NCBI GenBank assembly: GCA_964354855.1
Contig: CAYHBO010000001.1
Location: forward strand, 31,045 to 95,044
DNA length: 64,000 nucleotides
Direction of reading: 5' to 3'
Source of the DNA: an uncultured Pseudomonadota bacterium
Lineage (GTDB): Bacteria; Babelota; Babeliae; Babelales; RVW-14
Below are positions 98 through 64,000 of the stretch, piece by piece. The notes beneath the pieces were generated by a model that did not search any database, was not told where the DNA came from, and was given only the letters and a program-made list of their open reading frames with translations. The stretch's first letter is position 1. The number at the start of each line of letters is the position of its first letter. The translations under genes were made by a program, and so were the position numbers.

Positions 98-568
98 CTA
101 CGCTGCATTCGGAACCGATTTAAACAATTGAGAAAACTTATGATCTTGAATCGCTTTACAACAAAGGCTTTCTAATGCAATCAAATCACAAATAGAAAAC
201 GGAACTTCGGGGCCCCTTTGAGTATCTTTTGCACGAAACTGATACGTTTTTTCGTCTTTTGAATCGACTACTCCATACTTACCCAACTCATTTACTGCTA
301 CTTTTATAACAACAAAAACACGTTCATTGTTCTCTTCCTCATGTTTAGCTAAACATGATTTCCACCCACTCTCTTCAATAAAAATTATTGAATCTTTTTC
401 TTCTCCAAAAGGCTCCAAATACCCTCTAGTTTCATAAATCTCAATAATTTTTTTAGGAAGAATTTTGTAAAGACATTCTGGGAATTCTGCTCTAGGCTGC
501 ATAGCAATCAATCCCGATCGCATGACAAATAATAAACAAAAACCTAACATTAATTTTTTAATCTTCAT
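98..568 (-). CDS. secreted hypothetical protein carrying the MKIK...AMQP leader
   Basis: 156-aa ORF. The N-terminus MKIKKLMLGFCLLFVMRSGLIAMQP has a basic n-region, a hydrophobic core and an AMQ junction, as in the 32.9-37.3 kb array. No domain recognised. Confidence 0.5.
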   Translation of the reverse strand: MKIKKLMLGFCLLFVMRSGLIAMQPRAEFPECLYKILPKKIIEIYETRGYLEPFGEEKDSIIFIEESGWKSCLAKHEEENNERVFVVIKVAVNELGKYGVVDSKDEKTYQFRAKDTQRGPEVPFSICDLIALESLCCKAIQDHKFSQLFKSVPNAA

Positions 569-966
569 CGAATAAACCCTTCATAACAAAATCGCTTAGG
601 AATCCAATATCCCTTAAGAAAATAAGCAACTCTTCCTAATGTATCTAGCTCGTATTCCAAAGAACACCCAACAGATTTCATCTCTTTTAATGACACTAAA
701 TATCGGCTTTCTTTCCAGTGGACACTTTCTTGTTCTGTGTACAGGCGTGTACGTCCACCAATGATGTAAACATCATACTCAAGCGCTGAATGTGACGGGA
801 TAAACGTCACTCCATTAGGATTATCACAAACAAGAACATCTCGCGCCTTGCCATTAATTTCGTTTTTGAACTGAATCCACACTGGAACCTTAGTTGCTTT
901 AATGTAAAGCAAAGGCAGATCTTGGTACTGCATCGCAACCAACCCATCTTGAGCCCCAACCAGCAA
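565..966 (-). CDS. hypothetical protein, possibly a pseudogene with an interrupted leader
   Basis: 133-aa ORF from a TTG start. Directly upstream and in frame is GTG-H-K-I-L-M-I-I-TGA (967-993), so the family-type leader ...LLVGAQDGLVAMQ is split by a stop codon. The 4-nt overlap with the downstream ORF suggests an operon. Confidence 0.4.
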   Translation of the reverse strand: MLVGAQDGLVAMQYQDLPLLYIKATKVPVWIQFKNEINGKARDVLVCDNPNGVTFIPSHSALEYDVYIIGGRTRLYTEQESVHWKESRYLVSLKEMKSVGCSLEYELDTLGRVAYFLKGYWIPKRFCYEGFIR

Positions 967-1002
967 TCAAATAATCATCAAAATTTTATGCACACCTTAC
1001 AT

Positions 1003-1428
1003 TTAAACTCCCTTGTAACCCATATCTTTTGTTATAAGAGAAAAATCTTGAAGCGAGATAATAAAGCAACCGCGGCGAAATGGGAAGCCCCAGTGCTGCT
1101 TATTTTTTATAAAGGTTAATTCATTAATCAATGGTTCGATAGAAATGTCCTTAATTTTCTTGAATGCTACGTCACGTCGCCAGGGAATAAAATCATCACT
1201 CATCTTGAATTGATAAGGCTCACCTTCTTGCACTTGTCCCAATGCGGTAAATTTTCGGTACGGCGTTTTTTCACCAAAAATTTCTACGGGAGAGTAGTAC
1301 AAAACCCAGTCTCCTGGCTTGATTCGTTGCAAGGGGCCACATTTACCATGGCACACTTGCATGATGCCCGCCTTAACCCCAAGTCGCACATGTTCGCGAC
1401 TTGCAACCGCTATCCAATAAGACGTCAT
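1003..1428 (-). CDS. EVE (PUA-like) domain protein
   Basis: 141 aa. YWIAVASREHV...GIMQVCHGK...IKPGDWVLYYSP matches the typical N-terminal pattern of the EVE/DUF55 family. Confidence 0.7.
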   Translation of the reverse strand: MTSYWIAVASREHVRLGVKAGIMQVCHGKCGPLQRIKPGDWVLYYSPVEIFGEKTPYRKFTALGQVQEGEPYQFKMSDDFIPWRRDVAFKKIKDISIEPLINELTFIKNKQHWGFPFRRGCFIISLQDFSLITKDMGYKGV

Positions 1429-1796
1429 ACAGGCTCCTCAGGCCAAAACACTCTAATGCGGTGTCCATCTGGATCAAGCGCAACAAAAGTACGCCCGGCT
1501 TCATCAGTTGTTGGTTCTTGCGCCATTGAAATACCAAGGCCACGCCATTTACGATATGTATCGTCGACCTCTTTTTCAGCAAACGCAATCTCACTTGCTC
1601 CTGGAAGCCCGGTAACTTTTGGCATCGCAGTAACCGCTGACCACAAGCCAAGGCTTATCCCATTAGGCATCGTAAACATCACGAATGTTGCTGATTCCTG
1701 TGTCGGCTCAAGATTTAAAAGACGCGCATAAAAGTCACCACTGATTAATGGATCTTTTACAAACAAAATAACAAAGTTAAGTGATTGAACTGACAT
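1425..1796 (-). CDS. VOC (glyoxalase/bleomycin-resistance) family protein
   Basis: 123 aa. FVILFVKD...FY..LL and FVALDPDGHRIRVF are typical VOC beta-alpha-beta-beta-beta module motifs. Overlaps the EVE gene by 4 nt. Confidence 0.7.
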   Translation of the reverse strand: MSVQSLNFVILFVKDPLISGDFYARLLNLEPTQESATFVMFTMPNGISLGLWSAVTAMPKVTGLPGASEIAFAEKEVDDTYRKWRGLGISMAQEPTTDEAGRTFVALDPDGHRIRVFWPEEPV

Positions 1797-1865
1797 AACA
1801 AGCCTTTCATTTTAGTAGTTATTAATATTATATGTATACATACTATAATAATGGATTTTGAGAAT

Positions 1866-61850: not shown

Positions 61851-62011
61851 TTTTAGAAAAAAGAGGCTTTTTTGATAAAAAGTACAGAATTTAGTCCCTG
61901 CTTGTTGTAATATTTTTTATTTGAAATATAATATATATATCTATATTGTTTATCGTTATTATTAATTTTTATAATAATTTTTATAATAACTTTTTAAGTA
62001 AAGGAAATCTT

Positions 62012-63076
62012 ATGAACTATGTTTATATTAAACGACTTCTTGTATGGCTTCTATTGGGAGTTTTTATTATTGAGGCAAGTCTTTTTGCTATGATGCGACG
62101 TTCTCCGCTTCCTTTGGATGTAGCAAGTATTGAAGGAGAGCATCCTTTTATGCAAGGTCAGCCTTCTGTTCCTTCTAATAGAAAACCTGGCAATTCTCCT
62201 GAGCTTGGACCAGATGCTTTTCCTGTGCCTGTTTCTTCTTCTAATCAAAAAATTGGAACAATTGTTTTAATTATTGGAACATCAAGCGTTGGAAAAACAA
62301 CATTAACTAAAGAGCTTTTCTTTATATTAAGAAATAATGAAGAGAGTATGGGGCGGTGGGGGAATGCTCGTCTTGATGATATTTCTGATGAAGATTTTGG
62401 TGCATATGAAAAAGAAAAAAACAAGAGAAGTTTAAAGCCTAATAGTAAAATTCCAGAATATTTATCAACTGAAACTTATGCTTTAGCCAAGGCTGTTTGC
62501 ATTGCATTAAAAAAGAATTCGAAAGTTTTATGTGATACAGTTATTGATTCTCAAAAAGAGTTATCGTGGTTTAAAGGTCAGTTTCAGAAATATGAAATCA
62601 TAACGGTTCTTTTGTATTGTCCGCTCCTTGACTATATTGATCGTGTTGCAAGCCGTAATCGTAACGTTGATACTAGGGAGCATCGCTTACTTCAGCAACC
62701 GGTACTTACTTTTTCTGAGATGTATTCAACGATCCCATCTCCAGATTCAGGGGGACGTCCGAACTCTGCTCCAGTAGGATCGGTTTTTCCGGAAGACATT
62801 CCTTTTCTTTGTAAAACTCCATTGATGGAACAATCATTTGTTGGTAGCCGCTTTGGTGTTTTAACGCAAGAAGAAAGAGTAAGAGTTAGACAAGGTCAGG
62901 CGCATATGGGCTTTTCGGTGACAAGCGCGATTGGGCTAGATAAAAGAGAGCTTCGGACTCCTATTTTTTCGCGACTTGATTTTGATTTGGTAATTGACAC
63001 AAATGCGTTGAATCAAGAAGAAACTATAAAGAAAGTTTTGAATTTTATTAGGGGTAATTCAGAAGAATCTACTTAA
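62012..63076 (+). CDS. secreted P-loop kinase (chloramphenicol-phosphotransferase-like fold; tentative)
   Basis: Leader ...SLFAMM. Walker A IIGTSSVGKTTL. Length and layout are CPT/zeta-like. Confidence 0.45.
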   Translation: MNYVYIKRLLVWLLLGVFIIEASLFAMMRRSPLPLDVASIEGEHPFMQGQPSVPSNRKPGNSPELGPDAFPVPVSSSNQKIGTIVLIIGTSSVGKTTLTKELFFILRNNEESMGRWGNARLDDISDEDFGAYEKEKNKRSLKPNSKIPEYLSTETYALAKAVCIALKKNSKVLCDTVIDSQKELSWFKGQFQKYEIITVLLYCPLLDYIDRVASRNRNVDTREHRLLQQPVLTFSEMYSTIPSPDSGGRPNSAPVGSVFPEDIPFLCKTPLMEQSFVGSRFGVLTQEERVRVRQGQAHMGFSVTSAIGLDKRELRTPIFSRLDFDLVIDTNALNQEETIKKVLNFIRGNSEEST

Positions 63077-63106
63077 TACCATTTACTCGGAAACTAAAAC
63101 AATCTA

Positions 63107-63150
63107 AGCTCTTTGCGAGGTAAAAAAATTACCAGCAAAGGGCTTTTTTT
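63107..63150 (+). terminator. rho-independent terminator
   Basis: agctctttgc-(18 nt)-gcaaagggct, a 10-bp stem with one G-U pair, followed by T7. Confidence 0.65.
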
Positions 63151-64000
63151 ATGAGCATTGCCAGTATAAGGTATCGAATTTTATTATACTGTATTTTTTG
63201 TTGGTTGAGTATTTTTGGTTCTACGGTAGCGATGGGAATTTATCGTATTGAGTCGCTCGCTATTCTTGTTGCACACCCCACGCTTTTTAATAAAAAAGAT
63301 CTTATTGTTTTTGATGTTGATGACGTGCTTATTCAACAAGGTCTATTATCGTCAGGTCATCGAATTCTTGTAGAAATATGTGCTCCTCATGTGATACGGC
63401 AACTTCAGGGCCAAGGGGTAAAAGTGGTGGCATTGACTGCGTCCCATACTGGTTACGTCGATTATTTTAAACAAACAATTGAAGACTGGAAAATTGCATG
63501 CCTTAAGGGCTTTAGTATAGATTTTTCGCAGTCATCGCCGCTGGTAGAGCCGTGGCCTTATGAAGGGCATTTTTTGGGTCGTTGTGAGTTGCGGACAGGT
63601 CATAAAAATTCGACCCAAGTTTTGGTGAAATCAGGCATGATATCTTCTGCAAACTATACAAAGGGGAGTGTGCTTTATGCTTTTCTTATGAACCTTGAGG
63701 ACGAACTGCGTCCCAAGCGTATTATTGTTATTGATGATCAGATGGACAACCTGCTGAGCATTCAGGCTTGGTGCAAAAAACTTGGCATTGAATTTATTGG
63801 GCTACATTATTCAAAAGATCAGTCAGTTGAGGGACTTACAGAACAAGAGGCATTAAGGCTTTTTAGTTCTAATCATAATTTCCAGAGAAAAGTTGAGCAT
63901 GTAGTAGATAAATCTGAATCAGAAATAGACCTAGATCCATTTGCTAATAATTTGAATACGTGCCTTCTTATGGATGAAGCGCCGACTGAAGAGTCTCAGG
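63151..64000 (+). CDS. secreted HAD-superfamily-like protein (partial; runs off the window)
   Basis: Not in the ORF track. My manual translation from the ATG at 63151 stays open to the window end. Leader ...STVAMG. FDVDDVL is a HAD motif I, and IIVIDDQ is motif-IV-like. Confidence 0.5.
   Translation, partial: MSIASIRYRILLYCIFCWLSIFGSTVAMGIYRIESLAILVAHPTLFNKKDLIVFDVDDVLIQQGLLSSGHRILVEICAPHVIRQLQGQGVKVVALTASHTGYVDYFKQTIEDWKIACLKGFSIDFSQSSPLVEPWPYEGHFLGRCELRTGHKNSTQVLVKSGMISSANYTKGSVLYAFLMNLEDELRPKRIIVIDDQMDNLLSIQAWCKKLGIEFIGLHYSKDQSVEGLTEQEALRLFSSNHNFQRKVEHVVDKSESEIDLDPFANNLNTCLLMDEAPTEESQ

Follow-up and report, generated by a model that had tools for sequence, protein, structure and literature searches.

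A recurrent predicted Ala-Met cleavage junction on signal peptides of effector-like proteins in a Dependentiae genome

We analyzed a 64,000-nt stretch of the 95,213-bp contig CAYHBO010000001.1 (assembly GCA_964354855.1, positions 31,045 to 95,044 of the forward strand; hereafter the window), catalogued as DNA of an uncultured Pseudomonadota bacterium, in which the N-terminal leaders of many predicted proteins end in the motif Ala-Met-(Gln/Asn/Glu). This motif is the predicted cleavage junction of ordinary Sec/signal peptidase I signal peptides. The window has a GC content of 38% and holds pilB, a pilQ-type secretin gene, the genes for Skp and LpxD, and several eukaryote-like genes; its DNA has also been assembled from runs ERR3856787/8 and is present in ERZ4201064. 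Homologues of its secretin (PilQ) are labelled "candidate division TM6", "Candidatus Babeliales" and "Candidatus Dependentiae", and the window is part of a Dependentiae/TM6 (Babeliales) genome. Dependentiae are a phylum of obligate parasites of protists.

The carriers of the junction are listed in Table 1, in which an arrow (↓) marks the predicted cut. An earlier note on this DNA had quoted a series of junction strings, and every one of them was located where the note had placed it. The shared start that the note had described as MKIKN or MTIKN takes the form M-x-I-[KR]-[NK] in seven minus-strand open reading frames (ORFs; A and P1 to P6), with Ala-Met following 19 to 22 residues on. Two of the carriers that had been counted as strong cases are not strong, although their strings are correct. 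The leader of B is not intact: it runs from a GTG (993..991) to a GCG (936..934), reads GTG CAT AAA ATT TTG ATG ATT ATT TGA from its start, and is broken by this in-frame TGA (969..967), which is identical in three independent assemblies. Ank1 has a weaker peptidase site with Thr at -1, which falls below the threshold of our signal-peptide scan, while its n-region and hydrophobic core pass. In Ank2 and in the ORFan at 53692, other cleavage sites compete with the Ala-Met site.

The next gene beyond A, approximately 0.3 to 0.8 kb left of the window start (positions 3258-3752 of locus L122), also has a leader followed by Met, MQRRTNYLFFLIILVLVQAQVYS↓MQRGH; its public gene call begins at a GTG 7 codons ahead of the junction Met. 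Public calls begin at the junction Met itself for P6 (179 aa, not 200), B (122 aa) and two genes, at 7249 and 8003, of a relative whose PilQ is 69% identical (L125). Since such calls lose the signal peptide, Dependentiae secretomes are probably under-counted.

Table 1. Carriers of the Ala-Met junction in the window and the borders of the P-family array.
Feature	Position	Strand	Details
P1, secreted P-family protein	32954..33685	-	Leader codons 1-22, 33685..33620 MTIKNILMLIMFCLAYGGGVSA; junction Met 33619..33617 (SA↓MNP)
P2, P-family protein	33758..34714	-	Leader 19 aa, 34714..34658 MQIKNIFILMMFYGEFSSA; junction Met 34657..34655 (SA↓MQP)
P3, probable divergent P-family member	34763..35266	-	Leader 21 aa, 35266..35204; junction Met 35203..35201 (IIA↓MNQP)
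P4, P-family protein	35299..35781	-	Leader 21 aa, 35781..35719; junction Met 35718..35716 (IVA↓MEQ)
P5, P-family protein	35954..36688	-	Leader 21 aa, 36688..36626; junction Met 36625..36623 (VIA↓MQS)
P6, P-family protein	36685..37287	-	Leader 21 aa, 37287..37225; junction Met 37224..37222 (IFA↓MQV)
A, ORFan, MKIKK leader	98..568	-	Leader 22 aa, 568..503; junction Met 502..500 (GLIA↓MQP)
B	565..993	-	ORF intact from junction Met 933..931 (122 aa, GLVA↓MQY); decayed leader upstream
Ank1, ankyrin-repeat protein (Pfam)	4647..5594	+	Hydrophobic leader 22 aa, 4647..4712; junction Met 4713..4715 (NINT↓MQP)
Ank2, ankyrin-repeat protein (Pfam)	19433..20290	-	Leader 19 aa, 20290..20234; junction Met 20233..20231 (NMYA↓MNP)
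P-loop (AAA_18/CPT-like) kinase-like protein	62012..63076	+	Leader 26 aa, 62012..62089; junction Met 62090..62092 (LFA↓MMRR)
DUF2608 (HAD-like) protein	63151..64000	+	Leader 27 aa, 63151..63231; junction Met 63232..63234 (TVA↓MG); continues beyond window end
ORFan with signal peptide	53692..54471	+	Met codon 53755..53757; cleavage ambiguous, LNA↓YVELGAMRR or LGA↓MRR
pilB/gspE-type ATPase, upstream array border	37491..39197	-	L125 ortholog with MshEN + T2SSE
Downstream array border	30300..32856	-	pilQ secretin 30300-32021; conserved small genes 32024-32326 and 32323-32856 (MSFWLHE...)

Signal peptides were predicted with a home-made scan that looks for a basic n-region, an 8-residue uncharged hydrophobic core and a cleavage site obeying the -3/-1 rule (A/G/S at -1, A/V/S/T/I/L at -3, Pro excluded at +1, and the site 14-38 residues downstream of the start). 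In the leaders, a basic n-region, often MKIKN, leads into a hydrophobic core 8-14 residues long; the c-region that follows is polar and has Ala at -1 and I/V/S at -3. A, P1 to P6, Ank2 and the proteins at 62012, 63151 and 53692 passed the test for an n-region and a core of at least 8 residues, and Ala-Met was the best-scoring cleavage site in nine window proteins. The junction coincides, as the earlier note had proposed, with the predicted signal-peptidase site, and the mature proteins are predicted to begin with Met and to have Gln, Asn, Glu or Asp as their second residue. With Sec/signal peptidase I signal peptides in general, these leaders share the n-, h- and c-regions, the small or aliphatic residues at -3 and -1, a length of 19-27 aa and their occurrence on periplasmic or secreted proteins; they differ in that Met at +1 is common in Dependentiae, is nearly always followed by D/E/N/Q and goes with one cargo class. 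We know of no rule that favours Met at +1 of signal peptidase I sites.

Several other kinds of signal were considered and rejected. A lipoprotein (signal peptidase II) signal would have Cys at +1, where Met is found, and the Cys residues in some h-regions come without a consistent lipobox. The n-regions (MKIKN, MTIKN or MKK) lack the RR of a twin-arginine (Tat) signal. Type IV prepilin signals do not match, the -1 residue being Ala rather than Gly and the hydrophobic stretch lying before the cut, with a polar mature start (MQP, MNP or MEQ). Type IVb prepilins have a long leader, Met or Leu at +1, Gly at -1, and a helix and Glu5 after the cut; the P-family leaders resemble them in being about 20 aa long, in having Met as the first mature residue and in being encoded inside a pil cluster, and are unlike them in the same three respects of -1 residue, hydrophobic stretch and mature start. 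Cleavage after the Met (A-M↓Q, yielding pyroglutamate) would place Met at -1 and break the peptidase rule. An origin of GCN-ATG-G from a Kozak context was also dismissed, since the peptidase needs Ala at -1 anyway and the window clade has mostly ATG-C/A. TTG was considered as a stand-in start at +1, where four of the five Leu codons are TTG, but two or three of the ORFs concerned, being short or antisense, are probably spurious. Motifs of a second signal peptidase (LepB box B/E) were sought in the sampled loci only, and none was found.

The leaders are translated, real coding sequence. Pairing of the Shine-Dalgarno (SD) region before the leader ATG of Met-class genes with the anti-SD sequence has a mean of -7.4 kcal/mol, and 60% of the sites reach -6 or lower; before the junction ATG the mean is -2.1 kcal/mol and 5% of the sites do so, against 5.8% of random window positions. 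P1, whose first ATG has a strong SD ahead of it (-14.9 kcal/mol), is alone in showing an SD-like run at the junction ATG as well (-9.6); that run is built of Gly codons. Across three genomes the leaders are conserved as protein with synonymous changes. It could be argued that the junction Met is the true start and that the "leader" is open AT-rich upstream DNA that looks hydrophobic, as AT-rich DNA readily encodes Phe, Ile, Leu and Lys and gene callers took the junction Met in several cases. The position of the SD signals, however, rules out an artefact in which this Met is the only true start, and the protein-level conservation of the leaders, their n-h-c layout and -3/-1 residues, and the frequencies of only 1-3% in controls of similar GC make this account scarcely credible.

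The same data bear on the suggestion, made in the earlier note, that translation can also start in frame at the junction ATG, with a secreted form made from the first ATG and a leaderless cytoplasmic form from the second. An in-frame ATG downstream of the start lies at the junction in all carriers, and its strict conservation is what is expected of a start codon. The 122-aa ORF of B is intact from the Met despite the stop in its leader, gene callers choose this Met in P6, B and the two L125 genes, and a strong SD precedes only 60% of Met-class and 44% of other predicted leader starts, so that SD-less initiation exists here. Proteoforms of OmpX and PagC that lack a signal peptide have been documented in Salmonella (PMC11005335), and the genes in question resemble those pairs in having an in-frame ATG at or after the end of the signal peptide, so that a leaderless form is conceivable. 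Unlike those pairs, the Dependentiae genes have no ribosome-binding signal at the second ATG and a next codon unlike that of real starts: D/E/N/Q follow the junction Met in 27/34 curated cases (79%), compared with a count of 22/71 for position +2 of signal peptides that lack the Met (p=3e-6), whereas real window starts are followed by D/E/N/Q in 6/55 (11%) and by Lys in 20/55 (36%). The lack of SD enrichment at the junction ATG removes the simplest support for a second start, a second start would leave the invariant Ala at -1 unexplained, and there is no evident bacterial role for cytoplasmic ankyrin, leucine-rich repeat (LRR) or CaaX proteins. With SD pairing at background and a next residue that is not start-like, the suggestion gained no positive support, and we consider it improbable.

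Six of the carriers lie side by side between pilB and pilQ. P1, P2 and P6 are mutually similar through their mature parts (BLASTP 1e-18 to 1e-6), and with the leaders removed the mature parts of P5 (hhalign 96.7%, E=3e-10) and P4 (93%, E=3e-7) also match the family profile. The match of P3 to that profile is weak and borderline (E=0.006; BLASTP to P4, P6 and A, 0.005-0.008), and the mature part of A has no match to it. As judged by these comparisons, P1 to P6, with P3 probably included, belong to a single fast-evolving family of secreted, all-helical proteins encoded in tandem, and common descent accounts for their shared MKIKN start. The earlier note had called the carriers otherwise unrelated; this does not hold for five, probably six, of the array proteins and does hold for the ankyrin, kinase-like, DUF2608 and ORFan proteins. 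The family core reads ..EAY..FF...LLNA.DLGG.., and the AlphaFold model of P6 is an all-helical bundle (pLDDT 83.5) with no significant match in PDB.

A hidden Markov model (HMM) of mature P1, P2 and P6 was searched exhaustively against 1.84 billion representative proteins and gave eight matches, the three window proteins and five others (P0126-P0130), whereas a word-indexed profile search returned the window's own proteins only and missed P1 to P4 despite their being in the query alignment. All five non-window matches carry M-x-I-[KR]-x ... A↓M. Four of them lie on one 10.5-kb contig (L177, JAWVGW010009425 of GCA_040384425.1), directly after pilB, and the fifth is in L125 at the same position. 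The assembly of this third genome has >18,000 contigs and may be a eukaryotic host assembly containing a bacterium. Between pilB and pilQ, the window, L125 and L177 hold six, three and five copies, respectively. More distant Dependentiae loci have no array, and their pilB is directly followed by the conserved MSFWLHE gene, which indicates that the array is a clade-specific insertion. In the window, the leaders of pilQ and of the adjacent 100-aa gene (32024-32326) are predicted with a residue other than Met at +1, and the scan gave no prediction for the 177-aa gene (32323-32856).

Ala-Met is present in 15/15 P-family members found. An alignment of 11 sequences (mean identity 26%) has (near-)invariant columns only at M1, I3, A21, M22, L87 and L141, and conservation is higher at the two ends of the leader than at any position of the mature part. 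On this alignment, the Met and the Ala at -1 are shown to be under purifying selection. Conotoxin superfamilies and Mycoplasma Vlp lipoproteins likewise combine a conserved leader with a hypervariable mature part. The P family resembles these multigene families in that its leader ends are better conserved than the mature part; unlike them, it conserves only the first 5 residues and the Ala-Met junction rather than the whole leader, and the junction also occurs on unrelated families and on other leaders.

The earlier note had also raised a portable leader cassette grafted onto genes by recombination. In this account, a DNA cassette (promoter, ribosome-binding site and leader) would have recently spread or been homogenised among genes by recombination or gene conversion. 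P1 and P2 are indeed 85% identical over a 47-nt segment that takes in the SD and the beginning of the leader coding sequence, and a pair of REP-like (repetitive extragenic palindromic) palindromes lies just upstream of the array (37353-37472), between pilB and P6. A nucleotide alignment of the leaders does not support a cassette, however: the leader DNA of eight copies has approximately 60% column identity, and the bases that do not vary in these eight regions are limited to the ATG, some A/T positions and GCN-ATG. The Ala at -1 is encoded by each of its four codons, the codons for Ile3, Lys4 and Asn5 vary between copies, and relatives have the same junction on quite different leaders. The low DNA identity and the varied synonymous bases point to conservation at the protein level, and a recent cassette is highly improbable.

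Alternatively, 5' extensions or fusions could have put leaders ahead of the old start codons of young or acquired genes, leaving the Met as a functionless relic. The genes of the Met class encode ORFans and eukaryote-like repeat proteins or enzymes, the kinds of gene likeliest to be new; A joins an MKIKK leader to a mature part that has no relationship to the P family; and in Dependentiae an unusually large part of the proteome is exported via signal peptides, the cultured Chromulinavorax having them on 44% of its coding sequences and on 78% of its ankyrin proteins (PMC6561590). A neutral site, however, would not survive in 15/15 P-family members at about 26% identity. In the DUF2608 orthologs described below, the Met stays at the junction yet is shifted by 3 residues relative to a conserved IYRI block, and the residue after the Met is unlike a start context. 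Purifying selection, the D/E/N/Q after the Met and the absence of an SD thus fit a neutral relic poorly as well as leaving a second start unsupported, and we regard a pure relic as quite improbable.

The recurrence of the junction is non-random, as the earlier note had argued. Met stands at +1 in 9/26 window signal peptides compared with 10/365 in controls (Fisher p=3.6e-7), and a degenerate DNA pattern of leader plus junction has five matches in the window and none in 100 shuffles. When the P family is counted as one event the proportion is 4/21 (p=0.002), or 6/23 with the ankyrins added by eye (p=3e-5). The Dependentiae sample as a whole gives 19/87 (p=1.7e-8 against the same controls), and the distant Dependentiae loci alone, 13 metagenomic loci with PilQ 42-54% identical, give 7/46 (p=1e-3). 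A count that does not depend on the choice of cleavage site, [ASGC]-M-[DENQ] within 18 residues past the core, yields 25/151 against 13/546 (p=1.9e-9). This total is made up of 8/39 in the window, 8/32 in close relatives and 9/80 in distant Dependentiae, against 3/231 in unbiased controls and 10/315 in pattern-selected controls, which are biased upward because their loci were taken for matches to the leader DNA pattern (185,579 genomes; at least 120 unrelated single matches). Overall, Met is found at +1 in 11-35% of leaders in Dependentiae and in about 1-4% in controls, those of similar GC giving 1-3% except for one locus (L102).

The junction also occurs on leaders that differ from those of the window. 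Array genes in L125 have other leaders and the same junction (MKRALIVYIYSFTFLAA↓MQV, ..SGSIIFS↓MQR and ..VNNLEA↓MQR), as do ankyrin-like genes in L125 that are syntenic with Ank2 (SQA↓MLPQP and SYA↓MDHYS). Junctions in distant Dependentiae include TLSA↓MEDWN, TIFS↓MERPY, SIHA↓MEGK, VVRA↓MAEL, EVFA↓MERK and LFG↓MDKK. Judging from these loci, the Ala-Met junction is a Dependentiae-wide bias that is not bound to the MKIKN leader. We found no description of such a bias in the literature available as open-access text.

The claim that the motif marks a subset of the secreted proteins enriched in effector-like cargo was supported. The Met-class carriers in which a Pfam domain was recognised are ankyrin, LRR, dual-specificity phosphatase, P-loop kinase-like (AAA_18/CPT-like) and DUF2608 proteins, the others being ORFans. 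Among the 72 non-Met predictions are Secretin (five), OmpH (four) and Metallophos (three) proteins, YfiO/BamD, OmpA, M23, C11 and SurA-like proteins, plus false positives; two "non-Met" ankyrin matches include Ank2, for which the scan picked another site. Among the envelope housekeeping proteins sampled (Skp, PilQ, SurA-like, BamD and OmpA) none carries the junction. Its absence from Skp, the Metallophos phosphatases, the C11 peptidases and the endonuclease/exonuclease/phosphatase (EEP)-Macro protein, which had been remarked on before, was likewise seen. The last of these is a secreted protein (13230-15254) whose leader ends in HA↓QE. Elsewhere in the window, 40714-41781 and 41825-42778 encode paralogs with an N-terminal leader or anchor, and the 5' ends of the two genes have a common 88-nt repeat. 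The first of them carries a RING finger at its C-terminal end (zf-RING_2, 1.5e-8), a domain of the eukaryote-like E3 ligase type; the L125 ortholog has RING domains too.

When the DUF2608 protein that starts at 63151 is read to its stop (P0131), it ends in CCVCLIM, with a CaaX box (CLIM). Its ortholog P0132 has the junction ..SSCSA↓MQS and ends in CCSLM, with the CaaX box CSLM. Neither Met at +1 nor a CaaX box is found in the DUF2608 tandem paralog (A↓QM), P0133 (A↓E) or the leaderless P0134. The ortholog with the CaaX box and the tandem paralog without it are encoded at 87-980 and 1060-1923 of contig JAWVGW010018646 (L178), which belongs to the same assembly as L177. A CaaX scan of all loci gave one further plausible case only (L131, CCIS), which leaves the link between CaaX box and Met to the DUF2608 proteins. 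CaaX boxes are a eukaryotic prenylation signal, and CaaX effectors of Legionella are farnesylated by the host (PMC2916131). The window DUF2608 protein and its ortholog resemble these effectors in their CLIM and CSLM ends, which imply action in the host cytosol; they differ from them in having a Sec leader with an Ala-Met junction, the Legionella effectors being delivered by type IV secretion without a cleaved leader. The combination of a Sec leader and a CaaX box suggests that at least one Met-class protein is built for the host cytosol, in what is a tiny sample.

We propose that these observations could be explained in two layers. In the P1 to P6 array, the leader would have been inherited by descent; on unrelated host-directed proteins, the junction would reflect a phylum-wide bias. 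The junction probably arose when leaders were placed before the existing start codons of newly made or acquired genes, which is a plausible origin but not the whole story, and the junction would have been kept since a Met-first mature N-terminus matters for this cargo. Of the three explanations raised in the earlier note, a dedicated sorting or cleavage signal is the one that is still a viable candidate. One option is that the Met-first end is a mark read in a second export step, which would route cargo to the secretin or to vesicles. Another is that Met-[D/E/N/Q] provides a eukaryote-like (NatB-type) end, which would not be destabilising in the host cytosol and could escape N-degron surveillance. 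Listeriolysin O offers a comparison, as removal of its leader exposes an N-terminal Lys that makes it an N-end-rule substrate. To our knowledge, a free N-terminal Met is otherwise almost absent in the periplasm. The descriptive core of the finding is very likely to be right. For the whole explanation, comprising the Sec junction, the two layers and a selected Met-first N-terminus of host-directed cargo, which is the likeliest of the readings considered, the chances appear about even, and a functional N-terminal tag is a tentative proposal whose prospects fall somewhat short of that. That Met-[Gln/Asn/Glu/Asp] specifically serves as a dedicated effector tag, a periplasmic routing mark or a mimic of a NatB-type N-terminus is doubtful rather than probable.

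Short elements that mark effectors near a cleavage site are known in eukaryotic pathogens, namely the Plasmodium PEXEL and the oomycete RxLR, and a processed PEXEL leaves x-E/Q/D at the N-terminus. The Ala-Met junction is similar in that a short element at the signal-peptide cleavage site marks an effector subset of the secretome, a resemblance that would be functional only. It differs in that the organism is a bacterium, that there is no RxLxE/Q/D or RxLR, and that the element is a single Met made available by signal peptidase itself; no PEXEL/RxLR-type motif (RxLxE/Q/D or RxLR, within about 40 residues past the signal peptide) was found in the mature N-termini. We know of no dedicated protease or translocon for Ala-Met cargo. 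No type III or type IV injection system was seen in the sampled loci (whole genomes were not checked).

Several points weigh against this interpretation. The function that we infer would have to reside in a single residue, which is a low-information signal, and because A, S, T, G and V are also stabilising N-termini in the N-degron scheme, the choice of Met is not explained by it. Some effector-like secreted proteins lack the Met, including the EEP-Macro, RING and C11 proteins, and the co-occurrence of the CaaX box with the Met amounts to two proteins against three. The cleavage sites are predicted by a scan with visible false positives (a TsaD fragment, permeases and GatB). The Dependentiae data are limited to some 300 kb, most of it from around pilQ, and the source genome is covered only within its 95-kb contig. 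L102, an "uncultured Pseudomonadota" metagenome-assembled genome (CAYSQT010000003.1, GC 33%), encodes four tandem paralogs of about 390 aa at 1236-7601 with MNI[KR]N...[CA]A↓M[KED]. It is not labelled Dependentiae, and either its label may be wrong or the feature may be wider than the phylum.

Other sequence features of the window were recorded alongside the junction. The region 48565-49238 is a probable replication origin, where the GC skew turns from approximately -0.18 to +0.10; its intergenic repeats at 48847-48905 and 48992-49028 are perfect 34-37-nt inverted repeats composed of the DnaA-box-like words TGTGGATAA/TTATCCACA. Besides the pair upstream of the array, the REP-like palindromic element ACGTCATCCTCGCGAAWGCGGGGATCCAG forms convergent intergenic pairs at 15393-15519, 17913-18026, 25502-25650, 55583-55704 and 58058-58228 and occurs singly at 16497-16545 and 30128-30158, giving rise to spurious ORF peptides such as RHPRESGDPG. 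A second type of short repeat, the exact 34-nt sequence ACTTGTCATCCTGAACTTGCCTGCCCGCCGAAGC, is found at two far-apart intergenic sites (23884-23917 and 61257-61290). The ORF at 56704-57231 contains a 96-nt internal tandem duplication (56807-56902 and 56951-57046; 82% identical), by which a Cys-rich CxxC...C segment is repeated.

In Dependentiae, Sec signal peptides precede an exceptionally large part of the proteome, ankyrin proteins and other proteins of eukaryote-like type among it (PMC6561590). If the proposed explanation is true, a Met-first end would provide a simple handle for telling effectors from housekeeping periplasmic proteins, and the junction would offer a cheap sequence rule for effector prediction in uncultured genomes. 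If the Met is only a relic, the pattern would still record a lineage that makes secreted proteins by adding leaders to existing start codons.

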